In this document: positions 7,101-27,755 of the stretch, in pieces
How the letters are laid out: the number at the start of each line of letters is the position of its first letter
Position numbering within the stretch: the stretch's first letter is position 1
Source: Podarcis gaigeae
Taxonomy: Eukaryota
Length of the DNA: 64,000 bases
Strand: one strand, 5' to 3'
NCBI GenBank assembly: GCA_964106915.2
Contig: OZ066916.1
The notes under the pieces: generated by a model
What the model was told of the DNA's origin: nothing
The model's database searches: none
What the model saw: only the letters and a program-made list of their open reading frames with translations
Made by a program: the position numbers and the translations under genes

Positions 7101-7258
7101 ATACCTGTGCTGCAATGAATCAGTGCCACTGGCCATTAACCAGAAGGTTGGTGGTTCAAGCACACCCAGGGAAGGCTGTGGGCAGGATTCCTGCATTGCA
7201 AGGGGTTGGACTAGATGCCTCCTGGGTTTCCTTCCAACTCTACAATTCTATGGTTCTT
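7101..7258 (+). mobile_element. tRNA(Asn)-headed SINE with CR1-like tail
   Basis: Head aligns to vertebrate tRNA-Asn (ttaaccagaaggttggtggttcaagcacacccaggga); tail attcctgcattgca-ggggttggactagatg...cttccaactctacaattctatg. Confidence 0.75.
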
Positions 7259-9232
7259 TGAATGAGTATGCTAAACATACAATGTAAAATTATACATGCC
7301 ACCATAGATCATGGTCTTGTAGTCTCCCTCCGTCATTCTCTCTCACATACGTACACCAGTTTTTTAAGTAGTGAGAAATATTGTACACTTCATTCCACAT
7401 CCTGAATATGGATTTAAATGGAACTTCTACATAATTTCAGACATTGATGAATATATGAGGGCTTCAACAAATAAATGGTACTTTCTATATGCAACAAGGA
7501 CTTCTTTTCCCGGGAAAGATGCTGTGCAGCAGATAGGATGCAGAATCTTTCATCTTCCACAGAGTGTATTCTCCATTTCTGAAAGCTGAGCAGGTGTGCA
7601 TGCAGAGTTCTGTCGCATCACAAATACAGAGCACTCTATAAGCACATCACTGCCTTATAGAATTTTGGGTCATACGTGCCTAGTATGCTTAGAGTGTTTT
7701 CACATCATGCATCGTCTTCTGGAACTTGATTCTCTGTGATCACAAACATACTGAAGCTGTTGTTTATGTAACAGCCTTCCTGGAGGGAGTTAATAAGAAT
7801 TCAGGTGACAACAATCACAGACAAATATTTGTTAGTGGACCTCGTTCCTTTCTAATAGATCCCATAATGTCAGCATATAACATGACTTTTAGGAATTAGA
7901 AAATGTTTTAAATATTATTGGTCATGAATTTCAACACCATAGTAAAAGAACAGTGCCATGAAGATGGAACATTGATCTAACAGTAGCTGTGATATCATGA
8001 GGATAAAGGCTGCTGATTCATTGGCTCTTTGGTATATGACCATACATACAAGCTGTGGGTGTTTTTCTGATTTGATTGTTGTAGGTCTATTAGCTAAGTT
8101 TTAATTGATTATTGGCTGCTGTTTCAGATGGCAATTGTAAGTATTGTGAGCATTATTGACCACCGATAATGGAAAGAACAGAGGAGAAAATTTTAAATTT
8201 TAAGTTGCACGGACCTGATAAGTGAGTATTAGCCATGTGGGTTATTGCGCCAAACAGAAGCAATTTAAAATTGCATTTATTAAATAACTTTGAAACCTGA
8301 TACTTAGGGAGATGCTGTAATATTGCAACCAATTAATTGGCTGAAAGCTGGGTTGCTGGAGGATGCTCCCAAATGTTAATTTGCCCAAATTTTAAACATT
8401 TAAGAAATATTGCTTAGCCTGCAGGTGCCACTGAGTGAAGCTAAAATTACACCCAGAGTCTTTTGCCATGCCTTTGCCAGCCTGACAGGCAGGATTTTAG
8501 TTGCTCCCCGCCCCGCCCCGCCCCCCAGCCCTTGCCCCTGTGCCAGTGCAGGGAGCAGGGAGCAGGGAGCGCTTCACCTGCATAATATCTGTGTGTCAGC
8601 CTGTTGTGCTGTCAAAGGCGGAGAGCCAGGGCCAGGACAAAGAAGAAATAAAAGGTGATAGCAGCCTAAGTGAAGCACGGCTTCCCCCTCTTTTAGCAAA
8701 CACTGAGAGGCTGTTACCCACACGAGGTCCATTTTCTCTGGAAGTAACCTTGGCTGAAGTCACCCATTGAATCAATAAATATACTCCTCAAAGAAGTGAA
8801 TTAACCAGTCAATCCAGACCCCTGTTAGAAGGGAATTTGTCTCCCGATGTACTGGCAGGTCAGATACCAATGGAGGCAGACAAGCCAGTGCAGGGCTGGC
8901 ATTTCCTTTTCTGAAGGCATATATGTGATTAATGGGGCGTTTCATTGCTGCAAGTGAACTGTGGCTGAATTGCCTGCACTGCTTCATCTCTGAATGGAGG
9001 GAGCAGGAGAATGCTTGGTGACTGATAGCTTTTGTTAGCGCAGGCAGCCTGGACTCTGGTATTACTCCTCCCCTTGCCTCTCCTTGAAGATACATTCACA
9101 GAGAGCGAGTGCTTTGCAACTGGTCCTCATGCTTGCCCTGCTGTCAGGCAGCTCAGCTCACCTGGGACTCACTTCTGCACACTTTGGATTCTTTGGACTC
9201 GACTTCCCAAGAAGCTTCTGTCTTGTCCGACA

Positions 9233-9256
9233 GAATGAATGAATGAATGAATGAAT
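9233..9256. repeat. (GAAT)n microsatellite
   Basis: Direct reading. Confidence 0.9.
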
Positions 9257-10006
9257 GGGTGTAGGGTTCCAAAAAGATTCTGTACTTACAATGGAAATTT
9301 GAGGCCAAAGTAGAAGTTATCCTGCCGCAAAAATGGCCTGTCCTTTCCCCTCCATAATCTCTCACAGAACTTTCCCTGTCTCTTGACATCAGGACATTTT
9401 TCCTGCAGCTGCTGTAGGGATATGTATAGAAACTTGGAGAGGATATATTTATTCAATATTATCCTTCCTTCCTCATGTTTGTGAGTTCAGCAAAGTGCAT
9501 CTATTTGCAGCTTAAAATAAGGAAGTTTTGATAGTCTAGTTTTAGTCTTTTAGTTTAAGTGATCCATGATGCTTTAGTGCAGACTGGATTCTCCTGGTAT
9601 TTCCCCTTTTCTCCCCTTAACGCAATCATCACACAGTCTTGTAAACAGTAAATATAACATTTACTCACTTAGAATACTTGTTGAAGAGTAACAGATACTG
9701 CAGCCTCATTCAGGCAGGCTTAAAATGATCATCAGGTTACAAAGACATACTTTAGTCTAGTTTAAAGTGGTGTCTGAGTAATGAAGCTTTTACATTGGTG
9801 AGATGAAGTGCAAAGAGGAAGTGCCCAGCCAGGTGAAGAGGTTGTATGTATGTATGTATGTATGTATGGTCCCTCCCCCTAACAAGGCACTGTGGGTGTG
9901 TCTCTCTGGGTCCTCTCTAGGAAATTTACAGCACTCTGAGCTTCTGCTCCTCTCGTGTGCCTATCCAGCAAACATGCATGGTTGGTTTTTGACTGCATTG
10001 TAAATA

Positions 10007-10215
10007 CAGTGGTACCTCGGGTTAAGTACTTAATTCGTTCCGGAGGTCTGTTCTTAACCTGAAGCACCACTTTAGCTAATGGGGCCTCCTGCTGCTGCCG
10101 TGCCGCCGGAGCACAATTTCTGTTCTCATCCTGAAGCAAAGTTCTTAACCTGAAGCAATATTTCTGGGTTAGCGGAGTCTGTAACCTGAAGCATATGTAA
10201 CCCGAGGTACCACTG
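10007..10215 (+). mobile_element. Tigger-like MITE, copy B
   Basis: TIRs cagtggtacctcgggtta...taacccgaggtaccactg with TA flanks; nearly identical to copy A. Confidence 0.9.
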
Positions 10216-11608
10216 TATCTCACAGCTACTGCTGATCCAAGCAAGGAATTGTGGACTCGAGGGAAATTCTACATATGCTGCTGAAAGGGAACATGGACCT
10301 GCCGTTACCATTTTCAATAGCGCAATGGATTGGGGAATAACATTTGGTTTGGTCTGAATTCCATGCAGCTCAAAGAGCACATAAGCTTAGGTCTGTGGAT
10401 CCATTCTAATCATTCTGATGGATTCTAATCAACCAAAACTTTAATCACCAATTATAATCCTGAATTGCTTGTTTCTCATTCCCTCTGTTTTTGGTTCAAG
10501 TCTTTATTTGCTTGCGCAAATGTAACCAATATGGAACCACCACACACACACAAAAGAGTAAACCCAAACTCCACATAAGTACCAAAAAATCTGTAGGAAA
10601 GAACCATAATTGTGGAAAGGGGTGGGGGGTGTCAAAACAATCCAATGATGACTCAGTGTGCATAGAGTCCACCCCGTGGATGTTTGATAGATGAATGTTG
10701 TTGCATGTCAGGGTGGCCTCAACTCTGCAGACAGGGATTTGCCAGATAGCTGGCAGAGGACATATTTCTACCTGCATATTGCAAGGTCCAGCCCAAGAAG
10801 TGGTGTTCCTCTACCTACGCATCAGACTGTTGGTTTGTGGACTCGGATGACACAGGGCGGTTCCATAAGGCTTCATACACCTGAATCAGAATCCCTCCCA
10901 ATAACCTTTTGCTTTGTTAGGGGGTTGATTCTGGTGGCCACATAGCAGAGGTGACCACAACAAGGCCGTGCAGTCTGGAGAAGCTTGCTGCTGCAAGCGC
11001 CTGAAACAAAACATAACCTGCCATCTCACCTATGCAGTTGATCTCTCCTTTCCCCCTCTTCTTTAAAAGAAAGAAAGAAATCATTTCCTCTTTTAAGCAA
11101 AGGGATTATTTACTGCAAATCCGAAAGCAATAAATACACCATGACCAATTCCGCAAAGAGGCTCACAGCCAAAGGATCTCCCCTCCTCGTTATGTCGTTA
11201 GAGAACTGTAGCCGATTTAATTAAACGTGCTGACTGCTGATCCGCAGCAAGATCTGCGGCGCCTGGGGTAAAAACATCCCCTTGACATGCACGCGAAACA
11301 ATGCCGCCAACCCTTTACATCCCCCCATCGACTGATGGGATTGAACGGGAGGGTCTCTCTCCAGACTCCCCTCCTCCTTTCCGCGCGGACACCCCCCCTA
11401 TCGAAGCGATGTAAAGCCCCCCAAAGCAGCCCCCTTCCCTGGGAGAGGTTAATAAGCTCTTGTTCTACTGACAGAGCCTCTGATTGGGTTTAAAGTTCGA
11501 GTTTAGTAATCTCTTAAAGATCAGGGGCTCGGATAATGGCTCTCTTTGACTAGGTCCTTTTTTATCGTTTGGGGGCTGAGAAGATGGGGGGGCAACTTAG
11601 GACGAGCC

Positions 11609-11610
<2 letters not shown>

Positions 11611-11640
<30 letters not shown>
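11611..11640. repeat. (GT)n microsatellite
   Basis: Direct reading. Confidence 0.95.
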
Positions 11641-11644
<4 letters not shown>

Positions 11645-12175
11645 GAGGGACTGCTGCAGATCTGGGTAAGAGCCCCCCATCCTCTGAGCAGAAGGGTCTA
11701 CTTTGGTCCCCTGTGGAATGAAGCGGCAGAATTGGAACCACAGCTTCCACTTACTGACTGTCTGAGGGTATCCTGCAGAATTGCTTGATCCCGGGATCCC
11801 AAATAAGGAGCTTCCTTTAAGAGGCTGGTGTTAGTTCAATGAAATTTTCTGAAATCGTGGTGGCGCTGGGGTTACCTGCTAGGAAAGGTTTGTGTTCTGG
11901 AATAAGAATTCATTGCGTATCTTACGATGGATTGTTAAATCTATTGTTTTAACCATTCGCTTTGGTTGCATTATAACAAGCCTTCGGGGTTCAAAAGATA
12001 AAAGACGGGGGATAAATATCCAAGTTTGCATAAAGTACATTAAAAAACTTTCTCATCCAATTGAAATAAATCTCAAGTACAGTGGTTTGTGGAAATGGGA
12101 TCAGATCTGTTGCCCGTTGGTGTTCAGTTCTGTGGGGATGTCCAGTCTTGATGAATAAACTCTTCCCCCTGGGAT

Positions 12176-12545
12176 CAAAACAAAAAAATTCCTTCCAGTA
12201 GCACCTTAAAGACCAACTAAGTCAGTTCTTGGTATGAGCTTTCGTGTGCATGCACACTTCTTCAGATACACTGAAACAGAAGTTTCCAGACCCTTCTATA
12301 TAGTGAGAAGGTGGGGAGGGGTATTACTCAGAAGGCTGGTGGGAATGGGTGATTGGCAGATAGCTGTGATGAGCCTGTTGATAACGACTGCAATAGGTCT
12401 TACAGGAAGAAGCAAGGGGTGAAAAGGTGAAAAATGGCTTTGTCATGTATAATGAGATAAGAATCCAAGGTCTTTGTTCAGGCCAGGTTTCTCCATGGTT
12501 TTAAGTTTAGTGATAAGTTGTAATTCAGCAGCTTCTCTTTCCAGT
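12176..12545 (-). mobile_element. Penelope-like element 3' fragment (GIY-YIG endonuclease C-terminus plus UTR with hammerhead)
   Basis: Minus strand 12544-12443 translates LEREAAELQLITKLKTMEKPGLNKDLGFLSHYT*, typical of the PLE endonuclease end; probable TSD ccccctgggat (12165-12175) / ccctctgggat (12546-12556). Confidence 0.8.
12232..12269 (-). ncRNA. Minimal type I hammerhead ribozyme motif
   Basis: Minus strand GUAU-CUGAAGA-A-GUGUGCAUGCACAC-GAAA-GC-UC-AUAC: conserved core, stem I GUAU/AUAC, hairpin stem II, palindromic AGCU stem III. Confidence 0.8.
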
Positions 12546-12719
12546 CCCTCTGGGATATCAGAGATGGCTACCATTAGAACTCAGCCATAGCAGGAGATGG
12601 GGGCTCGGGGAGGGACGCAGGATTAAGGCCACCTGTTTAGAGCGAAGACTCCGCGTTTCGGAGTGGCTGCTTGTTCCAGGTTGGGATGAGATGGGGAACT
12701 TAGATCATACGGACTAGTC

Positions 12720-12856
12720 CAGGCGTAGGCAAACCTCGGCCCTCCAGATGTTCGGGACTACAATTCCCATCATCCCCGACCACTGGTCCTGTTAAACTAG
12801 GGATTATGGGAATTGTAGTCCCAAACATCTGGAGGGCCGGAGTTTGCCTATGCCTG
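12720..12856. mobile_element. Palindromic hAT (Buster/Charlie-type) MITE
   Basis: TIRs caggcgtaggcaaac...gtttgcctatgcctg; perfect 8-bp TSD gactagtc at 12712-12719 and 12857-12864. Confidence 0.9.
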
Positions 12857-13499
12857 GACTAGTCACTTGGGGAGATTTTGCCTGCTGCTGTGTCCTGATG
12901 GCTCAGTTCACCATTTGCTGGGTCGGTCGCTTGAACGAAAGAAGCATTTCTAGCGGGTGGGAGAATCATTTCTTCGGCTACTGCAGCGACCTGATAGTCG
13001 TAACGTGGGGGGCGAGGGGGAGAGCATTGCTTGCGGTGCGTAATTTCTCCAAGAGGACATGTGTAGACTGGGAAGATCTTTGGACATGCAGCATCACTAT
13101 CATTCTAAGCCAGCCTCCTTCAACCTGTTGCCCCTCAACCCAGATGATCCGGACTCCAACTCCCATCAGCCCCAGCCAGCACGGCCAATGGTCAGAGATC
13201 TTACGGGAGTTGTCGAGCAACATCCGGAGAGCACCAGCTAGGGGGATGCTGTGCTGGGCAAACCAGATCAGTTGTGTTCACATAATCGTGCTTCAGTCTT
13301 GGGAACCAGCTATGCACACATAAGTATATAGACAGATGCCCAGACACACCTGCATGCACTTCTGCTTTGAACGCCTGTCCCTGAAGAACAGCCGGGGAAG
13401 CCATTGGCTGTGGGGGGGGGGGCGCACTGGCTTTTGGCATAGGAAAGGTCCCCTGCAAATGGTCTGATTCAGTTTTCCATGTTCCTTAGGAATCCTGCG

Positions 13500-15900
13500 T
13501 AACCTAGCGAAGTACTTCGAGGGCGGGCAGATGATCCAATCACAGCCCTGACTAAAGGGAGACCATTATTTTTCGAGTGTTCCCGTCACTCGCCAGTCCT
13601 TACAACAGCCTTAACTTGTAGGCCGACAGCATCAGCAGCGCCCACGTGGCTGCGCAGCAAACGCTGAAGACCTCGCAGGAGGAGCTGCCTTGGCGCTGGG
13701 GCCCAGGGCGAATTGCAGGCCGAGCTTCACCACCGGGAGGGGACTTTCCCGCCCCAAAACTCAGGACGAGGAGGAATCGCAAGACCACCACCACCTGAGC
13801 ATCATCATCCAGGCTTCAGAAGCTGGTGGGGCCCGATCCACCATGCACGTTTCTGCAGCAGCAGCAAAAAAAAAAGAGCCACTTCTGTTTCCTACAGTGG
13901 CTTTCTTCAAGGGAGTGCGCGTAGAATGGAAGCCTGGAAGAACTCTCGGGATCGGGAGCAAAATGGAATGAGGTGGAGGGAGTTAGAAGCAATTCCCCCC
14001 CCCCCCATCGCCGCTTCCCTTGCTCCCCCCAACCTGGGCGAAGAGGCTGGAGCCTCGCGTACAGGCCATCTCTCGCCCCCTGGACTCTGGAGTGCGCCCC
14101 CGCCTGGCCGGGAGGGACGCTTTCCTTGGAGAAAGTCCCGAGGGAGGCTGGTGGACCATTAACAAGTCAACCACGCCGCTAAAGAGGGAAATCGGATTGT
14201 AGGAGAAGAGATCCCTATTTTTAAAAAAAACTTTTTTAAAAATATGTATTTATTATTTATTTGTTTGTGTTTGCATCCAAAGCTGGTAAGAAGCGAGAGT
14301 GAGAAGGAGAGAAACGCTCCGGACTCGCCTTTTCCAAACTCCTGTGCAGAAGCCGCTGGGAGGTTCATTAATAGCATTAGAATTTAACACCCCCTCCCTC
14401 CAGCTGACGTCACGCACATCGCCCAGAACTGGCTCGCTGTGAAGGTGGTTGGAGGGAGGGGGGGCGAGATGGAGGAAGAGGAGGGACGGAGGCGAGAGGA
14501 GCCCCCTCCCCCCTCCCGACGGGCTGCCTGTCAGCGCTCCCGGGGGGTATGATAGGCGCTTCAGGCTGGAGGCTCAAAGCACAAAGTCAGCCCGTGTGGT
14601 GAACTTCTGGAAACCTTTCACTTTTTTTCCTCTCTCCGCTCGGTGCCATTCACTTTCTGAGCACCAGACCCTGCCTCTTCTGACGTTGCCCCCCCCCCGC
14701 ACCACCGCCACCCCCGGTTCCTTTTTATGATTTACCCGCCTCTGATCTCTGCCTCGGCGCCCTGAGCCGCGCAGCGCAGCTCCGGCGTCCTCCTCTCGCC
14801 GTGGGGCTCTTCATGCCGAGCCCCCCCTTCTTCTCGCCAGCCCCACCGCGCCGCCGCCCCCTTCCTCGAAGCCTCCGGAGGGACGACGACGACGAACTTC
14901 TCCTCCTTCTGAAGAGCCACTGGCGTCTCCCTTCCCTTGGAAAAGAAGCAGCAAGCGAGCGAAGCCAAACTCTCTCTCCCCCCTCCCGCCGCCCCGCGCC
15001 CCGTCAGCTCCTCCCGCCAAAAAAAGAAAAGTTTCCCCTCTCTCTGCCCGGCAGGACCGTCCTCTGAGGAAAGTGGTTTGGGGAGGCGGGAGGCGGGCGA
15101 GGAGGAGGAGGAGGAGATGCGTCGCTTTCGCCCGCGGGAGGAACCCTGAGGCAGCTGCCCCGAGGGAGCCGGAGGAGAAGCCGCAGCGCCCGCTCGCCGC
15201 CTCCGGGAAAGAAGCCCCAGCCGGAGGCGCCGCCGCCCCGAGGGACTCCGCCATGAGCAAGCCGGCGGGATCCACAAGTGGGTAACGCGCAGCGGGGAGC
15301 GGGGGCGCGGAGGGGGGCGAGTGGCTTCGCTGCCCCCGGGCCAGGCTGGGTGCCTCTGAGGCGGCGGGGCGGGGGGTGTCCTCTCGCTCCGAGTCTGGAT
15401 CTTCCGCAAAGCGCGCTTCCCGGGAGCAAGCCCACGCGGAGGGGCTTTCCTCGCAAGGGGGTCTGCGGAGGATCGCGCTGCGTGGCTTTGGGATTTTGGA
15501 GGTTGTTTTCTCCGGGCCTGTAATGAACTTCAGATTTCCCCTTTCTGATCGCGGTGGGGGGGGGGGGTAAGGATGGGGCGCTGGTAGGTCGCGATCGAGT
15601 CAAAGAGTTGCGCACGCGGGTCGCTTTCCCACGGCGGAGATCGCGATGCCGATCGACCTGCGCAACTTCCTTCTGCTGCTCTTAATCCGTTTTAGAAAGA
15701 GAAGGGAGAGCAGCCCGAAACTTCGGAGTTGAATGCCAAGGAGGAGGAGGGAGGGAGCCGTTCTCTGGAAAGAGGATTTGACGGGAATACTTTGCACACC
15801 ATTTCCAGCCTTACCGAATAATCCTGCGAAAGGGAGAAGCAGAAACAACTTAAAAGTCACATTTCCCTTAATCCTAAATCCGGGTACACCTCATAACGGA
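13500..15900 (+). promoter_or_regulatory. NR2E1: NR2E1 CpG-island promoter, 5' UTR and start of intron 1
   Basis: High GC and CpG density around the start codon; full CRE tgacgtca at 14405-14412; island boundaries and TSS approximate. Confidence 0.8.
15253..15277 (+). CDS. NR2E1: NR2E1/TLX coding exon 1 (MSKPAGST-S)
   Basis: gccATG Kozak context, matches the TLX N-terminus, donor gtgggt at 15278. Confidence 0.95.
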
Positions 15901-16354
15901 GGGATTTCTTTCTTTAAGTCTGATTGACCGCTCGGGCTTGGAGTTGGCTTCAGACTCCAGAAATCCAAGAAGGGACTTTGGGGTGGGTGTCCCCCCTCTT
16001 TTTTTGGTCGTAATATACATAATAGGGTCAGTAATGTACACGATCTAGTTTGATGTAAGGCGACGGGTGGACCAGGTCATTTTAGGGCGAGAGCGTGGGG
16101 CCACGGTGACTTTTTTTTAGCAACATCAAAAATGCCTTTGGAGAAAGAGAAGCACGTGCGTGTAGAAATGCCTCCCCCCCAAAAAGGGCGCATTTGAGCT
16201 CACGAATCGTCTCCCTTTATTTCCTCTCCACCCTCTTCTTCCTCCTCTTCTAGCGCGCGTGTTGCTTGCTGTAACTGCAGACTAACTTTATTCCGAGTTA
16301 TCTGGCATCGCTCGATATTGAAACTTTTCCCCAGCGAGCAAAATATATAAAAGA

Positions 16355-16357
<3 letters not shown>

Positions 16358-16419
<62 letters not shown>

Positions 16420-16428
16420 TGTGTGTGT
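16358..16428. repeat. Compound (CT)n(GT)n microsatellite
   Basis: Direct reading. Confidence 0.95.
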
Positions 16429-17116
16429 ACACCACCATCATCACAGCAAAAAGAGAAAGTAAAAGTTTTTTTTTCTGTATTTGAGGATCACCAAAATATA
16501 GTTTGGGGCTGGGAGCGGGGAGGTTAGCGGGATTGATCTGGTAGCAAAATCCCTTTGGATCCATCTAGAGCAAACCTCTCCCGTCTGTTTTCCCGCAATC
16601 TTTGGAGGGGTCAGGGGACGGGACACCTGCGTTGCTCTTGCCAGGGGACGTGCAGACTGTTATCTAAAGAGAGGTGGAAATTATTCTCGGGCCAACTTTG
16701 TGAAATTATGGAGGCTATGGATAATTTGCTCGAGAGTAGTTCTACTTTCAATGGAGCTTCCTCCAGGTCATCGTGCATGGAACTGCCGCCTTACAGCTCG
16801 ATTCTTTATATCTGTTACCTTAGAATTTAGTCGCCAGGATCCAGTGGGCGTGTGTTCAAAGTTGATGCAGCTTTTTGCCGCAGCCCCCTGAGTTTGGCCT
16901 TGTTGTTCCGCTAGTCCCTGGGGTTGAACCAAACTGCCTCGGGGAGATGGGCTCCCCGAGTGTCCCCGTTACCTCCCCTTCTTGGGACTCTGTCGCTTCT
17001 TACACTGAGGGCCGTCACAGGTTCTCTCGGATAACTTTATCCCTAAGGAGAAATAAAGAATGTGGTGTAAACCGGGAAGGGATGTTTGTGTGTGAGAGAG
17101 AAATGTGTTAGGACAG

Positions 17117-17117
<1 letters not shown>

Positions 17118-17160
<43 letters not shown>

Positions 17161-17178
17161 TTTCTTTTCTTTTCTTTT
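17118..17178. repeat. (CTTT)n microsatellite
   Basis: Direct reading. Confidence 0.95.
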
Positions 17179-20100
17179 TAACTAAATGCGATTTCTGTGA
17201 CCTGGGAATGAGATCCCTAGTGGGGTCGGGATGTTACTTGGAAGTAAGTTTCCGTCATTTCAAGGAGGCGAGACGGACTTCTCCTGCCCCGTCTGCAGCC
17301 CGCCCGGGATAGCTTAAAAACAAAATTAACTTGGCATAACGGAATAAACGCCGCTGGAAGATTAGCTCCGGAGGAACTCCGTCCCGGCCAGTTTCCGTTT
17401 GCTTGCATCTAAACTTGCCATTGATCCGCCTTAAGGCTCCAGAAATGATCCAAACGCAACGTTTTTGCAGCTAGGAGAGTTTTATTACGTGGTCAGCGAG
17501 TTCTTTCCTCCAAACAAAAAAACAAAACCGGACTCTGTTCACAATCCTAACTGATATCAATAAACAAAAACCAAGCGCCGTTGGTTTGAATGACATTGGC
17601 ACGACAGCCTTGATTTTAGGTGACTGGTCTCAATCTGCGGTTTGGGGGGATTCAAATGGATTAAAAAATAATAATCAATCCACAGACTTTAAGCTGCTCG
17701 GCTCTATTTGGATCGTCCCCTGTTTATGAGTTGGGGAACATTTTCTATTTCGGGGTATGCGGAAACTTGGTTATTTATTCTGCAGGATAGAAGCTGTGGC
17801 TTCTCACGCCATTTCCCCCCTGGCGGACCCCTCCCCACTGATCCCTCTGGCCTTTACTCCCCCGCAGGACCTCGGCCCTGCCTTGAGGAGGACTGGGGCG
17901 ATCTCCTGCGCCCCTTGGAGGGAGGGCGCCCCTCGCCAGGCCTTGAACAGCCCGTCTAGTCCCGAGCCGTGGCGCAGAAGCGGCCGCGTCTCCTCCGGCC
18001 TTTGGCGCTGGCTCCGCTTTCCCTTCCGCCAGGCTGGAGTGATGTCAGATGTGATCTCTCTGCTTGGGTGGTAACAAGACCCCGTCGAGGAGTCCTCGCA
18101 AAGCAGCCTAACTTCTTTCAACAGCCTCTGATGGTAATTACAGTAATCGAAGCTGCCATATATCTTTAAGCAATTAGGAGGCGCGCACACACACACAAAA
18201 AAAGTGCCCCCGCCCCGGACGCCCCGTCGAGGGATGTTCCAAACGGTTTCCCAGCGCCGCCCGAGCCGCGTTTGTCTTTCCCGTTAGACTTCTGGGGCCT
18301 TTAAACAGGGGTTAATCAGTTATCTGGTGACCTCGTGTCAAGTTAACGGGGTCCCTCGTTCGCCTGGCATCCTTCGGAATTTTATTCTCAGCACAGGAGC
18401 CATGGTTGCTGGAGGTGGGGGGAGGACACATTAATGGGCTGAGAGACTGACACCCACCCTCTCCAAATGCCATTAAAATGGTGGAGGGGGTAAGCGGAGG
18501 GCAGGGAGCCAAAGTTTGCAGCAGAAGAGTACGGTGGCGAAGGCGAGAAAAGAGGCACTGCCGAAGTTGAGACCCGCAGGGTTTCAATGGCGAGAGTTTT
18601 TAAGCTTCTCCTTTCGGAATTCGTAGGATTTAAACGCGCTGGATTGTGGCTGGATTCCCCCCCCCCCCCCGCGCGCGCAATTATAGTAGGCTATTCTGTT
18701 GCCTATTTCGGTGTGCAATGTTTAAGCTAGCAATGGAAGGAGAATAAGGAAATTAAAGAGACAGCGAATCTAATATCCAGCTTATCCTATCTCCTGTCTG
18801 AAGTGGGTGCCTGGTTGCCAAATAAGCAGGCATATTCAACGGCACCAATACAATATAAGCACTTAATATAGAGCAGAAACAAGAGGTCAGATATAGCTAG
18901 CTACGTTGGGCGTCGGAGATAGGAGAAACAATACAAGAACAGAGCAGAATCGATCCCGAATCTGGGCAGGGCGAGCGGATCCGGAGGTGTTTAGAGGAAT
19001 CCTCCCGGGCATTAATTAAGGCCATTAGTTTTTCCGCAGGCCGCGGGAAGAAATTCTGTGGGCGGAGGTTTAATATAAACAAACTTAATGCAAATAAGGA
19101 ATATACAATGTGGTGGAATACGTGGGGGTCCCAGTGAAATTAAAAGTTAAACTGTGGCTGAATTGGCTTGTCAAAATTGCACGCCTGTTCGGGGACGCTA
19201 AAACAGTTGTGCATGTTCCGTTATTCTGTATTCGCCGCTGGAATATTTTGCCGCCCTCAATTTTCCTAGGCACTTTTACTCTGGATTAGGATACCAGAGC
19301 AGCTTACTCCCAAGTAAACGAACAAAGTTTTACCATCTTAACCCTGTGCGCGCCCGCGCGTGTAAAAATACACGTGGAAATAAATCCATTTGAACTTAGA
19401 ATAACTTTTTGCTCAGAATAAATATTATTAGAAACCGGCTACAAGTATGTAATTGCACTTATCCTGCATTCAGCCCCTGAGGAGTAAATTGGGCTGCTCT
19501 GAAGTAAGAGCTATACATTTTTAAAATATTTAAATTTAGGAATTTAATTTTTAAAAATTTATTCTAGATATACAACTAGGGGCTTTAATGGTTATACCTC
19601 AGGTACTCCTAAAAGCGCTATTTCAGATTTTCTAAAATAGTTATGACTCTCAGGGTCATAACTATTTTCCTATTTTATTTCCCCTTTTCTTTTTCTTCTT
19701 TTTTAAGCAAAACCCTAGAACCAAGGTGCTACGATTTGGGGAATGGTATCTCCAGAAATACTGGGAAGTAAACTGGTTATTTACTTTACACTTAATATGA
19801 TGTTTACCGCCCTCTGAATATATTTACGACTAGATCCTCTGCTGGCTCAGAAAGAAATCCGATGGATTTCAACGCGACTGGAAGCCTGGTTAGACTATTT
19901 CAAGCCAGCGGCTCGTAGTCACAGGGACGGCTTTGGGTCGGACGCCTTGGGGGACAGAGCCACCAAAAGGACGCCCCCCCCCGCTCTGGAGAAATGTCGC
20001 GCCCTCAAACTCGACCCTCTGAGGTTTTTTAACTCGGAAGTGAGCTCAAGGATCCCCCCCCCGCCCCGTGCAGGGGGATCTCATCCTCGGTGGCGTGGCA

Positions 20101-21679
20101 CCTCCCGCCTGCACTTCGACGTGAAGTCCTATCGATCGAGCCTTTGAAATCGGTTTGTGGGGCAGAGGCAGAGAGAGATGGGAAAGAGCGAGTCTGAGAT
20201 GCGCAAGTGGAAAAAAACAAACAAACGAGGAGCGGGGGCAGAAGCCCAGAAGGCGAGTTTGGGATTTGCATAAGGAGTTGCGCGCGTTTTGTCCGATTAA
20301 GGAGCGATGAAATCCAACGCCGGGCGATGGCACCGTGGCATGTCCGATTTCCTTGCCTTTTCCCCTCTTTGAGAGTGGAAAGTCCAGCAGTGGCTGCCTG
20401 GAGGACGTGCGGGGGGGGGGGGGGGGGCTGAGAGAGAGCGAGAGCCGGCCAAGAGCGGTGTGAGAGGCAGGGGAGGGGCGGGAGGAGGCGGGAGGGGGAG
20501 TCGAGTGCTCTCCCCTGTGGCCATTGTCTGCAATGCGAATTCCCATGCTACTCTTTTTGACGGGTCACTGGTGACCCAATAGGCAGGTGGCAAGGAGGGC
20601 GTGTAATTACACAGCTCCAGAAGCCAAGCTTGGCTCGCCCGGCTCTCCTGGAGATCGCTTACCTTCCCGCTCCCCCCCCCCCCCGCTCCGCAAACCACCA
20701 CCCACATTCACACGGCAGCCAAACTTCACTTTTCATCTCGAGGGGGAGGGCTGAAGATTCCTGAGCGTTGTCCTTTCCCCGGACCTGTTGTGACTGATTC
20801 CCCCCCCCCTCTCTCTTTCCCTCCTCCTCCTCCTCCTTGGAAGGATCCCTCCTCCCTCCCTCGCGCCCCCCTCTCTCCGCTTCCCAGCGCGCCCCACCAC
20901 CTAATCCCCCTTCCTCCCGCCGGCCCCGCATATAGCAGCTGTCGGGTTTCATTTGGAGGAGAAGCGGGCCGCGGCTGGCAGCTTGCGCTGATTGGAGGCA
21001 GTCAAACGAGTTCTCCATAGGGGGAAATCATTAAGTTAACACGTTATCTAATGTCCCTATTGTCTGCCGGGGAGGCATTGTTTCAGGGCCCCGCCCCAAG
21101 CCCAGAAGCCAGGTCTCGGAGCAGCGCTCTCGCCGGCCTCGCTGCTCCAGAAAGCGGAAGAATCTGCTCGGAATTCCGTGCCCCCCCCCCCCGACGACGC
21201 CATTCGGGCAACCAGCCATCCCAGTCACACACATAGGTAAAGGCTGGAAGCCCCGTCTCCTTTTCCGAATATTCCTCTTGCTCTCTGCCCGCTCAGCTGC
21301 AAAAAGATGGTGCCTTGCGCCTAAATCTTCCAAGTCCCTTAGACTTCATTGCGCCCCATCTTAAGAGGTTTACAGCTTTCAGGCTGCCCTCCCTGCAAAC
21401 ATATGCCTGCCCACTCACAAGGGAGCCCCACTGAGTTCAATGGGACTTACTGCCAGGTAAGTGGAGACTGGATTGCAGCCTAACTTGGAAGCAGGCCCTC
21501 TGCTGCAGTGCAAAGGCCGCACACCTCCGCCCTGCACCTGGGAAGTAAGCCACCTTGAACAGAGCACGTCTTTCCTCCGGGTTGCAAATGTATGGGACCC
21601 GGCACGAATCCGATCCGAAGTCCTCCTCACTTTTTACAATGCCATTATTATTATATTCTAACAAATACATTTGCTCCAG

Positions 21680-21835
21680 AGGATGGAGTGAAGGGGGGAC
21701 AGCTGCCCCCACCAAATCAAGTAAATAAATAAAAAATACTTAACTAACTGACCAATTGCGTCGTAGATAATTCGGTTCTGTCCGTCCCCCCCACGAAACC
21801 GGCTCCCTCTAAAATAAGTCCAGGCTACGCCCCTG
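21680..21835. mobile_element. Non-autonomous DNA transposon fragment (gctacgcccctg end); related inverted copy at 61343-61503
   Basis: Both copies share aaatacttaactaactgac and a (c)ctggctacg-type terminus, in opposite orientation. Confidence 0.55.
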
Positions 21836-22924
21836 CAACCCTCTTAGGCGCAACGCAATCCTTCGAATGCCTTTGCTGTTTGCAGAGTATATTAGCCCGC
21901 AGTCCGTAGGATTGCGGTCTCCGTGGGGCCTCCCGTTGTAGCGGGGCTAGAAGGGGCTGCAGCTTCAGAGATGAAACTGCCGCTGGGACATTCCCAAACT
22001 TTTCCTCGAGAACTACCCGTTGACCTTTGAAATGCTGCTCTCACTTTTGAATAGCCCGATCCTAAGCGCCTTGAATTTTGCCAGCAAGCTCCAGCGGCTG
22101 TAACGTAGGTTTGCCCACCATCGCAGGCTGACGGCTAAACTTTATCCCAAAGGCATTTGCAAGGAGGGCTTGGGGTCCCCGGAAACGCCCCGGGGCTGAG
22201 ATGTTAGACCAGTAGATGCTGGTGCTTGCGGGTATCAGTTTTGAGCCTGTTCCTTTTAGTCAGCTGAGGACGCGCTTACTTGAGCGTAAGGACCGTTGGC
22301 ATCAGTAGGACTTTCTGACTGAGAAAGTGGGGCGAGAAGAGAACTGGGGTGTATTATTAGGTGAGCGGTTCTTCTGCGACACAGAACATTAAGGCATAAC
22401 CCACCTAATGCGAAGTTCCCGTTTCCTTAGTCTGGGTCTGTAAAGCACCGGCTGTGCACCAGAGGATGGCGTAGCGCAATCCTACAGGTGTTTACTTAGC
22501 AGTTTCCCCAGAGTATGACTGGGCTTTGCCCAAGTCATCGGACAAGCCTCTGCCTGCTTTCTCGTAAGCAAACCCCATTCGTTCCCTTAGGACTTAACAC
22601 CTGACAGGTTTAGGTTTGAGCCTCATGTCTTTAGGAATGTGCCCTTAATCGAAATAAAACCTGGTTGATTTTAAGAGCTGTTCCACAGTGGCTGCCTCCG
22701 AGAAGGTGGTAGATTCTCCTTCTTTACCAGGTTTCAGTATGAGCAGATTGGACACTCGATGCTCTTTCGGTTTCCTGCCAGCTCAGGATTAAATATCATT
22801 ACTTCTAACCAGAGCTAAAAGAAGAAGGCTGCACTCCCAAGCAAGTTTACTTGGAAGAAAATTCCCTGGGCTTCAATCTTGCTTCTGAGTAAACATGGAT
22901 AGACTGAACTATAAATCTGTTTAG

Positions 22925-23135
22925 TGTAGCAGCGGCGTGTTGGATTAAGGGCTGGGGAGGCACCAATTCAAATCCCCACTTAGCCATGAAGCTTCATGAG
23001 CGACCTTCTGCTAATCGCCATCTTTCAGAGTAACCCACCTCGCAGGGTTGTTGTTAGAAAAATGGGATGGGGAAAGAAACTATGCACACTGAGCTCCTGG
23101 AAGTTAAGGCAGCAGATAAGTGTAAGGCATAAATC
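22925..23135 (+). mobile_element. Old MIR/Squam3-like tRNA SINE
   Basis: ttcaaatccccacttagccatgaagct...acctcgcagggttgttgt core, shared with the copy at 25245-25708. Confidence 0.65.
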
Positions 23136-23180
23136 AAATCCATGCTTGTTCGAACAAGGAGTAAGCCAGTGAAACTATTT

Positions 23181-23323
23181 GGATGGCTCAGTTGGTTAGA
23201 GTATGGTGCTGATAATGCCAAGATTGCCGGTTCGATCCCCGTATGGGACATCTGCATATTCCTGCATTGCAGGGGGTTGGACTAGATGATCCTCAGGGTC
23301 CCTTCCAATTCTATTATTCTATT
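23181..23323 (+). mobile_element. tRNA(Ile)-headed SINE with CR1-like tail
   Basis: Head gctcagttggttagagtatggtgctgataatgccaag...ggttcgatccccgtatggg matches tRNA-Ile; same tail as the 7101 copy. Confidence 0.85.
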
Positions 23324-23940
23324 TCCTAGTCACTTGAGGATCCTGTACACATTTGCCCAGAAGTCCTGCTATTGCTTCATTCCCAGGGAAGGTGCAGAGG
23401 CCGGGGGTGCAGGAGAGCTTAGGGTAGCAACACTAAGGAAGTACAAGCTTCTGTTTCCAGAGGGGAAGTGAGGACTTAATGGTCTTGTAGAGGGTAGTTG
23501 TCTTTAGATAGGCAAAGGCTTCTTACTTCACTTCCTCCACAATGTGATGTGCCAACCCTGCTGCGTTTGAGGGTCCTTCTCCTGCTGAATGAGACTCTGG
23601 ACTTCTGTTCCAAAGTCCTGCCTGAGTGTACCACCGTCTAATTCCCGCCCCCTCCAGCCAGAATTTCTGCTGCTACTCCTGTAACATGGCAGGAGAGGAC
23701 TTGCAGATGCTGGGCTCCTGATCAAAGCAAATGCAGCCAGAAAGAAGTCCCTGAAAAGCTGGGAGTGGTGCAACAAGTTGATTTTATACTCTGGGCTCAA
23801 TGTTGTTGTTTTTAAAAGGAGCATGTGTATTACTTTAGTTGTGAAGCCCACAGTTAACACTGATCTTCTCACCACTACCATCACCTCCTGACCATTCCAT
23901 GTTTTACAATTGCTTCTACAATCCTAATATGTAGGATGGC

Positions 23941-24563
23941 TTTATTTATTTTATTTATTTACTAGTCACTTCCTTTTTTACCAAAGTAACTCTTAAGTTA
24001 CTTACAATATAAAACAAACAAATACATTAAAGTCAGGTTAAAATGAAACAAACAAAAATATCTAAAAGACAATTCTATTTTTAAATAGGTGGATTGAAAC
24101 ATCCCACTCAGTCATGGAAGCCATGATAATGAAAAGCCAAAGACCTAAATGTCCCGTCCCCCCGGGTGCCTAAAAGCTATGCAGTGATGGAGCCAGGCAA
24201 GCTTCCCTGGAAAGAGATATCCATACACAGGGAGCCATCACTGAAAAGTCCTGCTCTTGTGTTGCCACCCTCCAGACCTACAAAGAAGAGCCTCACATGA
24301 TGATCCCAGGGTCTGGGTCAGTTCATGTGGGGAGAGGTGGTCCTTGAGATTTGGGGCTCCTGAGCTTTATACATCAGAACCAGTGCTTTGCATTGGGATC
24401 AGAAACTAACTGGTAACCAGTGCAGTCGAGCCAGGATTGGTGCAAGGAAATAAACAACTTAGGAAGTTTTTAATGACTGATGTTTTAATGTATTTTTAAT
24501 ATTTTGTTGGAAAATGCCCAGAGTGGCTGGGGAAACCCAGCCAGATGGATGTGGTATAAGTAA

Positions 24564-24611
<48 letters not shown>

Positions 24612-24985
24612 TGCTCAGGCTATCTTGCCACAGTGAGCAACCTGGCTGCTGAATTCTGCACCAGCTGCAGTTTCTAAACTGTCTTCGGAGGCAGATCCAT
24701 GTATAAGCATTGCAGTAATCTAACCAAGAAGTTACCAGAGCATAGTCAACAGAAATCAGAAGTTTGCTGGGCCACCAGCCAAAGCTGATGGAAGGCGTTC
24801 TGTGACCCTGAAGCCACTTGAGCCTCAAGTGACAATGATGGAACCCAAAGTAACCCCAAGCTACTGCCTGCTCCTTCAGAGGGAGTGTAACCTCAACCCA
24901 TCCTTCCAGTCTGGGGAACAATTCACTACCAGTGCCTCAGTCTTATCTGGATCCAGTTTATTGGCTCTCATCCAGTCCATTACGA
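23941..24985 (-). mobile_element. L2-type LINE fragment, interrupted by a + strand L2-type 3' end with (TTA)n tail (about 24447-24610)
   Basis: Minus-strand peptide ALVTSWLDYCNA and nearby QLVQNSAARLL are L2 RT C-terminal motifs; (TTTA)n tail at about 23941. Confidence 0.75.
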
Positions 24986-25272
24986 TTAAAAAAATGGAAA
25001 ATAAAAAATAACAGCATGTGCATTTAAACTCACTTTAAATCACAGCACCACCATGACCATTGGAATAAAATGTGTCTGCTGCCCTGGTGCTAAGCTCATT
25101 CAGTTGCAGAAAAGGGCAGCACTGTATATTTTTAAATGACTATAAGTTTTTAAAAGACTATAAGTTTTTAAAAGAAGAAGAAATACTGATGCCAGTCCTC
25201 TTTGATGTGCCCCCTCTCCCTTCATCTGTCAATCCCTGAGTAGAGAGAGCCAGTGCGGTGAGGTGGTTAGAG

Positions 25273-25409
25273 CAGGCTTCCTCAACCTCGGCCCTCCAAC
25301 TGTTTTGAGACTACAATTCCCATCATCCCTGACCACTGGTCCGGCTAGCTAGGGATCATGGGAGTTGTAGGCCAAAAACATCTGGAGGGCCACAGGTTGG
25401 GGAAGCCTG
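25273..25409. mobile_element. Palindromic hAT MITE nested in a SINE
   Basis: TIRs caggcttcc...ggaagcctg; TSD ggttagag (25265-25272) / gattagag (25410-25417). Confidence 0.85.
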
Positions 25410-25442
25410 GATTAGAGGGTCAGCCAAGGTCCAGGGAGACAG

Positions 25443-25549
25443 CTCAGGATCATGGGTTGGAGCCCCACATGGGGCAAAAGATTCCTGCATTGCAGGCAGC
25501 CGCATTAGATCACTCTCGTGGTCCCTTCCAACTCAACAATTCTATGAAA
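25443..25549 (+). mobile_element. 5'-truncated tRNA(Lys)-headed SINE with CR1-like tail
   Basis: ctcaggatcatgggttggagccccacatggggc resembles the 3' half of tRNA-Lys(CTT); followed by attcctgcattgca...gtcccttccaactc..caattctatga. Confidence 0.7.
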
Positions 25550-25880
25550 TCTTCACCCAGCTATAAAGCTAATCTGGGTGACTTCAGGCCAGTCACTGTC
25601 GCTGAGTCTAACCCTACCTCGCAGGGCGGTTGTGAGGATGAAACGGGGAGGGGGAGAACCACGTAAGCCGCCTTGAGCTCTTTGGATGTTAGGCGTGGGA
25701 TATAAATGTCCTCATCAGAGTCATCATCAGAGTACTTGCCTGGACTTGGGCCTGAGGTCGAGCTGCGTCCCTGGTCACTGGAGATGCCCCCGTTATCCTG
25801 GCTGTGATGCCCATCACGGACTTAACCATGCCAGAGGGCTGACCTTCTTTTCTTTCTCTTTCTCTCGCCTTCGCCCTCAG

Positions 25881-27580: not shown

Positions 27581-27755
27581 GGGAGCGTAGCTCAGCGGCA
27601 GAGCGTCTTCCTCGCCCATAGAAAATCCCAGGCGCAATTCCTGGTGTCTTCAGGAAGGTCCTGCCTGAAACAGGAAAGCAGCTGCCAGGCACTCTGGACA
27701 AAGCTAGACGAACCTGTGGTCTGGCACAGTCTAATGCAACTGCCTCTGTTCCTAT
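27581..27755 (+). mobile_element. Older tRNA-derived SINE; related minus-strand copy at about 62095-62265
   Basis: A-box-like gtagctcagcggcagagc, degenerate B-box, tail ending ctgcctctgttcctat. Confidence 0.55.

Follow-up and report, generated by a model that had tools for sequence, protein, structure and literature searches.

Three SINE families in the genome of Podarcis gaigeae probably arose when the reverse transcriptase (RT) of one CR1 subfamily jumped, on separate occasions, onto unprocessed tRNA, placing heads derived from tRNA-Asn, tRNA-Ile and tRNA-Lys on the 3′ UTR of the same LINE. A copy of each family lies in the window, a 64,000-nt stretch of contig OZ066916.1 (assembly GCA_964106915.2), which contains the following features:

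7101–7174, + strand: tRNA-Asn-derived SINE head of the variant isodecoder type (57/74 positions to the variant gene)
7175–7193, + strand: 19-nt spacer of a dicistronic tRNA-Asn/tRNA-Ser gene, whose last 8 nt (7186–7193) equal CR1 3′ UTR and hold the junction
7186–7257, + strand: CR1 3′ UTR tail of the Asn SINE, with predicted hairpins and a ATTCTATG-type end (profile E 8e-18; fold)
23177–23250, + strand: tRNA-Ile-derived SINE head, anticodon GAT at 23211–23213 (59/74 positions to tRNA-Ile(AAT); Rfam tRNA 28.9 bits)
23251–23322, + strand: 7-nt joint followed by the CR1 3′ UTR tail of the Ile SINE; tail position 33 carries the T of the Ile family
25246–25712, + strand: older unrelated tRNA-headed SINE in pieces 25246–25272, 25418–25443 and 25550–25712 (uninterrupted relatives at loci L108 and L240)
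25273–25409, no strand assigned: MITE with 16-nt terminal inverted repeats (165 BLAST matches in 1.33 Mb of loci)
25444–25476, + strand: 3′ half of a tRNA-Lys(CTT)-derived SINE head, 5′-truncated copy (alignment; family copies)
25477–25549, + strand: AAAG joint followed by the CR1 3′ UTR tail of the Lys SINE; tail position 39 carries the T of the Lys family, and the hairpin is damaged

Three tRNA heads on one LINE 3′ UTR

An exact 14-mer is common to the three elements (positions 7187–7200, 23258–23271 and 25481–25494; three matches, each with 0 mismatches); in shuffled sequence searched at a looser setting of two mismatches, the mean was 0.91 matches, and three were reached in 4 of 100 shuffles. 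A tail profile matches the window at these elements only (E 6e-20 to 1e-10), confirming the CR1-type 3′ end that the original prediction had given to all three. Its tRNA assignments held as well: the stretch called Asn-like (7101–7175) resembles a variant tRNA-Asn gene of the same genome, the Ile-like stretch (23181–23250) extends to 23177 and aligns with tRNA-Ile(AAT), and the remnant read as the 3′ half of tRNA-Lys(CTT) (25443–25475) is indeed closest to that tRNA. The 5′ parts are unrelated, as predicted: the heads fit tRNA-Asn(GTT), tRNA-Ile(AAT) and tRNA-Lys(CTT), not one another, and the family majorities stay separate, at 45–50 of 74 positions head versus head, instead of collapsing to a single consensus. 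ARAGORN finds 0 tRNA genes in the window.

The shared motif had been described as a linker, a SINE module of its own; it is instead where the 3′ UTR of a CR1-type LINE starts, 5 nt past the ORF2 stop. The upstream majority sequence of the LINE copies forms an open frame whose stop lies 5 nt ahead of the motif. In a sister LINE subfamily, a search with the C-terminal protein stretch encoded there recovers a 951-aa frame containing Exo_endo_phos and RVT_1 domains. The SINEs share their 3′ end with this CR1-clade LINE: the tail is continuous with the end of the LINE ORF and terminates in ATTCTRTG, an end described for CR1 (PMC5729268) and the signature on which the clade label rests. Nor do the data support a SINE-specific tail module that captures heads, as had been proposed: the common part is simply the LINE 3′ UTR, carried mostly by LINE fragments, with tRNA heads at 6 of 30 loci and on 11 among the first 100 matches listed. 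LINE tails are dense in the genome (11,461 matches). A long hairpin is predicted in five of six folded tails (z-scores −0.4 to −1.9), the exception being the damaged Lys copy of the window. SINEs and LINE overlap in their time of activity, with non-CpG-like mismatch of 10–14% in the SINE families versus 11% in the LINE (samples of 30, 30, 30 and 15).

Exact junction matches, found genome-wide over many contigs, number 1257 for Ile, 1198 for Lys and 59 for Asn; the Asn and Lys heads are both multicopy and not chance juxtapositions. The expectation that each head type is abundant holds for Ile and Lys (a rough ~15,000–18,000 copies) and fails for Asn (~1,000), ~20 times rarer by exact junction matches, so that the presence of all three heads within 19 kb is a matter of chance. 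Elements of these families are ~150–165 nt long, without a body and with a CR1 end. The family majorities match tRNA genes of this genome at 65/74 (Asn variant), 67/73 (Lys(CTT)) and 66/74 (Ile(AAT)) positions, and all three thus have the head derived from Pol III RNA that defines a tRNA-derived SINE in SINEBase (PMC3531059). Unlike plain tRNA pseudogenes, they are dispersed and multicopy, with extra sequence and family-specific changes. Among 100 listed of 1023 matches to a pattern excluding the LINE, no recurrent fourth head appears (by hand count, 23 Asn, 28 Lys, 20 Ile, 6 LINE-like and 23 one-off), a pattern that misses heads with A at the second base upstream of the motif and heads joined at another site.

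The three head–tail joints differ between families. T33 of the tail is private to the Ile family (37/58 copies) and T39 to the Lys family (34/50 copies), both being atypical of Asn and CR1, and no derived tail site absent from the LINE is common to two SINE families, T33 occurring among the SINEs in Ile only and T39 in Lys only. In passerine birds, by contrast, the tails of TguSINE1 and PittSINE have four derived sites in common, and a SINE-to-SINE head swap from TguSINE1 to PittSINE is proposed (PMC5729268). This difference argues against a single ancestral tRNA–CR1 SINE whose head was later replaced when the RT switched template from SINE RNA to another tRNA, a history we consider unlikely in Podarcis. 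Head swaps would fit the position of all three joints within ~8 nt at the start of the 3′ UTR, the CR1-identical tails of the oldest Lys and Ile copies, and the Lys(TTT)-like 5′ end that the Lys and Ile heads have in common, together with an A at tRNA position 7 that is absent in both parent genes. They fit poorly with the joints themselves: Ile retains LINE-like bases upstream of the motif that are missing in Lys and Asn, whereas the G before the motif is retained in Lys and Asn and missing in Ile. At the diagnostic tail sites the CR1 state persists in minorities of Lys (10/50) and Ile (14/58) copies, so an early swap could have preceded T33 and T39.

The Asn head and its putative dicistronic donor

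The Asn head can be traced back to a variant tRNA-Asn found in dicistronic Asn–spacer–Ser units, three of which are intact. The window copy, whose anticodon has mutated to ATT, agrees with the variant gene better than with canonical Asn (53/74) or with Lys and Ile (39–44). Two compensatory pair swaps in the anticodon stem are common to the Asn SINE (40 copies scored of 1239 genome candidates) and the variant gene of the cluster, and are absent in six canonical Asn genes. The SINE also retains the 19-nt spacer, which agrees at 18 of 19 positions with that of one intact dicistron and exactly over the first 16 with that of another; its final 8 nt are identical to CR1 at the junction and stop directly before the start of tRNA-Ser. 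When the spacer was shuffled 20,000 times, the terminal 8-mer occurred in the CR1 end in 0.5% of cases and an 8-mer from anywhere in the spacer in 4.4%. The exact donor was not found among extant Asn genes: all three intact dicistrons differ from the SINE in the variable loop (A, against T in the SINE), and the variant paralog closest in its tRNA part has a decayed spacer.

A T4 run is absent within 90 nt of eight of the nine variant Asn genes and present within 16 nt of all 20 other tRNA genes in the same 200 kb. The Asn–Ser unit may be transcribed and processed as a putative dicistron. Words from the dicistron stretch were present at 41–65% in 14 DNA or unlabelled sequencing runs with seven organism labels; this is a word share only and is not used as evidence. 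The cluster, C2, was rejected as the home of all three donors, none of its 29 genes being an Ile or Lys gene.

The spacer common to SINE and dicistron could also be read in the reverse direction, the dicistron being a domesticated Asn-SINE copy that inserted in front of a tRNA-Ser gene and whose tail disappeared. We find this hardly credible, as the dicistron genes are full cloverleaves with intact CpGs, hold canonical-tRNA states where the SINE is derived, and carry compensatory stem changes; moreover, the loss of the tail would need to have stopped exactly at base 1 of tRNA-Ser.

The Ile and Lys heads and a proposed route of origin

The Ile SINE head reads GAT, whereas all seven tRNA-Ile genes found read AAT. 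The 44 Ile pattern matches comprise these seven genes, one SINE copy with AAT and 36 GAT matches, every one of which (36/36) is a SINE copy. G occupies the wobble position in 47 of 51 copies scored, and in 29 of 33 after loci picked on that site are left out. GAT in the SINE copies, with no GAT gene found, is as expected from an inosine-edited RNA template, and I34 is described as being made on tRNA precursors (PMC4446420). The wobble A-to-G change could also be an ordinary mutation in the Ile master, which would have about four non-CpG changes in all. A search for a variant Ile gene sharing the 3′ end of the SINE gave 6 matches, all 6 being SINE copies or fragments. Target-site duplications in young Ile copies were not convincing.

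In the Lys family the tail motif is present in 25 of 30 copies selected by head. The window copy is 5′-truncated, lies inside the older unrelated SINE and adjoins the MITE; its remnant aligns at 51/73 positions with tRNA-Lys(CTT) in a gapped alignment of which only the 3′ half is real. The older SINE, which hosts both the MITE and the Lys copy, is presumably MIR/Squam3-like, and the MITE, flanked by an 8-nt duplication with one mismatch (25265–25272/25410–25417), is by duplication length presumably hAT-like. None of 30 examined of 44 matches to the 5′ end of the Lys SINE is a Lys gene. By eye, no donor emerged for the Ile or Lys joint among the trailers of seven Ile and six Lys(CTT) genes, which match over 4–6 nt at most.

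RT template switching, the route originally thought likely, gains direct support from the Asn donor, the microhomology and the GAT anticodon. We propose that the CR1 RT would copy the LINE 3′ UTR and then jump onto an unprocessed tRNA. For Asn, RNase P cleavage at the tRNA-Ser 5′ end would release a pre-tRNA-Asn with precisely the 8 nt of the junction at its 3′ end, and the nascent cDNA end would pair with them before copying continued; for Ile, the RT would read inosine 34 of a pre-tRNA as G. Each chimera would be transcribed by Pol III from its A and B boxes and mobilized by CR1 ORF2 through the hairpin tail, both steps being established SINE biology. In this specific form, with an 8-nt match to an RNase P-released Asn/Ser precursor end and a separate jump onto inosine-edited pre-tRNA-Ile, so that new SINE families are built from intermediates of tRNA processing, the proposal is plausible but tentative.

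The chimeras might instead have formed at the DNA level, by microhomology-mediated repair or gene conversion involving a tRNA gene and a CR1 3′ end close to it, or by a very short CR1 insertion immediately behind a terminator-less tRNA gene. The 8-nt microhomology also fits end-joining, the cluster is prone to duplication, LINE tails are dense in the genome, and Asn genes without a nearby terminator would make read-through automatic. A DNA-level origin nevertheless seems improbable to us: it leaves unexplained both the G at the Ile wobble base and an Asn joint flush with the first base of tRNA-Ser, and a LINE tail follows none of the Asn genes in the cluster.

Relation to known SINEs and implications

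Several tRNA heads on one CR1 tail are already known as a concept from birds, where TguSINE1 (tRNA-Ile head) and PittSINE (tRNA-Asp head) have been published (PMC5729268). As described there, these elements resemble the Podarcis families in having a tRNA head directly on a CR1 3′ end, a hairpin, an ATTCTRTG microsatellite, more than one tRNA head per tail and a proposed template switch; they differ in that Podarcis holds three heads within one genome. The passages on TguSINE1 and PittSINE name no donor gene, and a term search of that paper returned no mention of anticodon, inosine, microhomology or trailer.

Among reptiles, the founding tRNA SINE with a LINE-derived tail is the turtle CR1/SINE partnership, a different lineage compared here by description (PMC5381603). 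By description also, tuaCR1-SINE1a/b of tuatara is a CR1-mobilized, tRNA-like lepidosaur SINE with more than 10,000 copies (PMC7116210, bioRxiv 867069). The squamate families Squam1/Sauria, Squam2 and Squam3 are tRNA-headed like ours (PMC10702118, PMC7983390), but their descriptions set them apart, at ~190–350 nt with a body, and in Squam3 a CORE and an L2 end where the present elements have a CR1 end.

The three families were not found described in the literature, and Repbase, Dfam or SINEBase may already hold the Ile or Lys family. Ohshima 1996 reportedly treated the tortoise Pol III/SINE with its CR1 partnership. By its title, Fantaccione 2004 (listed among the references of PMC5063351) is said to pair a tRNA-derived SINE, presumably the one named P.s.1/SINE, with a CR1-like LINE in another lacertid lizard, Podarcis sicula; the title speaks of one SINE–LINE pair, against three heads here, and this element may well be our Ile or Lys family.

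As a rule, the birth of a SINE has to be reconstructed from the shape of its consensus, the donor gene and the junction having been erased. Here the spacer of the Asn family implicates a particular type of gene and a particular processing cut, and the Ile family keeps a probable mark of RNA editing; with such marks, template switching becomes a reaction that can be tested on defined substrates. The search found no description of a vertebrate Asn–Ser dicistron or of a traced SINE donor of this kind, and the Asn family exposes an apparent tRNA–tRNA dicistron in a vertebrate nuclear genome. With roughly 30,000 elements, these families will inflate annotated counts of tRNA-Ile(GAT) and tRNA-Lys genes.

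The shared tail and its LINE source

The 14-nt motif common to the three elements is exact at 7187–7200, 23258–23271 and 25481–25494, and these are the sole matches in the window to a tail profile derived from 30 copies in the genome. The motif had been taken for a linker, a SINE part in its own right, but it is LINE 3′ UTR: a stop codon lies 5 nt upstream, and the LINE majority sequence is in frame up to it, so that the tail represents essentially the entire 3′ UTR. In the 1.51-Gb genome, a 31-nt tail core has 3172 exact matches; among the first 30 loci, two carry the Ile head, four the Lys head, and the remaining 24 continue into LINE sequence or break off near the motif. For a 16-nt core, a hand count of the first 100 of 11,461 matches, which come from a LINE-rich contig end, gave six Lys, five Ile, and no Asn heads. 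The LINE C-terminal protein stretch has 29,871 candidates in the genome, one of which (locus L339), a frame of 951 aa, has endonuclease and reverse transcriptase domains and belongs to a sister LINE subfamily with a different tail. A hairpin together with an ATTCTRTG end is given as the CR1 signature in PMC5729268; a hairpin is predicted in our tail, with no significance relative to shuffled sequences.

One MITE family (window 25273–25409; loci L094, L105, L107, L168, and L197) recurs at a single position within the CR1/SINE tail and is also inserted in the A-box of an older SINE, which suggests a target preference. Its hairpin accounts for the weak Rfam mir-5408 matches at 12746, 25299, 42761, 53234, and 60303. 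The window contains a further SINE:

27581–27750: tRNA-headed SINE without a CR1 tail (Rfam tRNA model, 31.3 bits)

This Ala-like type, also present at L133–L148, is presumably Squam2/AnolisSINE2.

tRNA heads and their parent genes

As originally noted, the 5′ parts of the three elements are dissimilar and each tRNA-like, and they do not collapse to one consensus (45–50 of 74 positions shared between heads). The Rfam tRNA model detects the Ile head alone in the trio (28.9 bits) and ARAGORN calls no tRNA gene among the three heads, as expected because the copies are old. Parents were sought among tRNA genes located in the same genome: six Lys(CTT), seven Ile(AAT), six canonical Asn(GTT), and several Lys(TTT). 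The Lys family majority matches the Lys(CTT) gene at 67/73 positions and the Ile majority matches Ile(AAT) at 66/74, while the Asn majority is closer to a variant Asn (65/74) than to canonical Asn (61/74).

The wobble base is G in 47 of the 51 Ile SINE copies scored. A pattern allowing both wobble states returned 44 matches, namely seven AAT genes, one AAT SINE copy, and 36 GAT matches, all of which were read and proved to be SINE copies. A34 of tRNA-Ile is deaminated to inosine, a G mimic, and several G34 genes are missing from most eukaryotes (PMC8072771); deamination occurs already on precursors (PMC4446420). Copying of an inosine-bearing template may account for G34; a chance A-to-G change in a master copy is another possible origin.

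A tRNA cluster at C2:117.161–117.185 Mb contains nine variant Asn genes, in which two anticodon-stem pairs are swapped with pairing kept, a state identical in the Asn SINE. Eight of the nine lack a T4 run within 90 nt of the gene; all 20 other tRNA genes in 200 kb have one within 16 nt. Two variant genes are followed by a spacer of 19 or 22 nt, an intact tRNA-Ser(GCT), and a T run; most others retain Asn with apparent decayed Ser copies downstream. With a third intact unit at C2:116.68 Mb, the apparent dicistronic tRNA-Asn(GTT)–tRNA-Ser(GCT) units (spacer 19–22 nt, single terminator after Ser) are:

G000:C2:117165602 (L219)
G000:C2:117177991 (L220)
G000:C2:116680000 (L331)

We propose that Asn and Ser would be transcribed and processed as a dicistron. 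Such units would be unusual for a vertebrate nuclear genome; a literature search on them gave only yeast- and RNase P-centred papers. A divergent gene resembling tRNA-Gly(CCC) and equipped with a terminator lies at the cluster edge (G000:C2:117185061, L221), and zinc-finger-like coding repeats flank the cluster.

The Asn SINE runs from the tRNA into the dicistron spacer, matching one unit at 18/19 positions and another exactly over the first 16. The switch to LINE falls within the last 8 nt of the spacer, which are identical to LINE sequence and abut Ser base 1; among 20,000 shuffled spacers, the terminal 8-mer occurred in the last 183 nt of the LINE in 0.5% of trials. That the dicistron is itself SINE-derived seems highly improbable. 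Two features argue against an exact donor assignment: a variable-loop A in the intact units is absent from the SINE, and the paralog closest in its tRNA part has a decayed spacer. Because no unit matches exactly, the donor would be an ancestral or since-changed paralog.

Joining of heads and tail

We propose that reverse transcriptase would copy the LINE 3′ UTR first, and the cDNA end would then anneal to the 3′ terminus of a pre-tRNA intermediate, on which synthesis would go on; the resulting chimera would combine A and B boxes with a LINE recognition tail and so be amplified. Joining at the DNA level is improbable.

The joints are unlike, consisting of donor spacer in Asn, 4 nt in Lys, and 7 nt in Ile, the last resembling LINE bases around the stop. 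T33 occurs in 37/58 Ile tails and T39 in 34/50 Lys tails, the LINE state being dominant at each site in the other families; the sister LINE subfamily likewise has T39 but differs at its other tail sites. Bird SINE tails have four derived sites in common (PMC5729268). Since the lizard changes are family-private and those of birds shared, the bird argument for a SINE-to-SINE head swap fails here, and we consider such a swap unlikely; an early one is conceivable, as a minority of Lys and of Ile copies retains the LINE state. Lys and Ile heads both carry A at position 7. The 5′ ends of Ile and Lys SINEs resemble tRNA-Lys(TTT) more than their own parent genes, and full-length Ile copies start as tRNA-Lys(TTT) genes do (A7, C2, and two leader bases). 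Such possibly mosaic heads could reflect a second jump inside the shared A-box.

Abundance, age and known systems

Exact junction matches number 1257 for Ile, 1198 for Lys, and 59 for Asn genome-wide. Scaled by the fraction of head-selected copies with an exact junction (3/36 Ile, counted by hand; 2/30 Lys), these correspond very roughly to 15,000 Ile and 18,000 Lys copies. All three heads thus belong to genuine multicopy families, not single-copy juxtapositions; the expectation that each is abundant holds for Ile and Lys and fails for Asn, with ~1,000 copies (1239 candidates). A 64-kb stretch should hold one Asn copy ~4% of the time, and the trio within the window is therefore due to chance.

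The SINEs show 10–14% non-CpG-like mismatch to their family majorities versus 11% for the LINE, crudely 80–110 My, probably too high, at 0.0013 per site per million years (rate quoted in PMC13295347). A young Ile subfamily has 91 exact matches (L289–L308 among them); 12 of 20 fetched copies lie 0.7–3.5% from their own majority, whereas truncation or indels raise the distances of the other eight, since the alignment was ungapped. This implies recent CR1 activity. Alongside it, the 951-aa frame of the sister CR1 subfamily is open.

A Podarcis lizard element with a tRNA head and CR1 tail has reportedly been described (Fantaccione 2004). tRNA heads on CR1 tails are also described in birds (PMC5729268), tuatara (PMC7116210, bioRxiv 867069), and turtles (PMC5381603), and ACASINE is named without structure (PMC7561263); further SINE sources were PMC3531059, PMC10702118, and PMC7983390. 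The literature comparison returned no description of the three families, a traced donor, or the dicistron. The elements belong to a known class, and the evidence on their origin is unusually direct.
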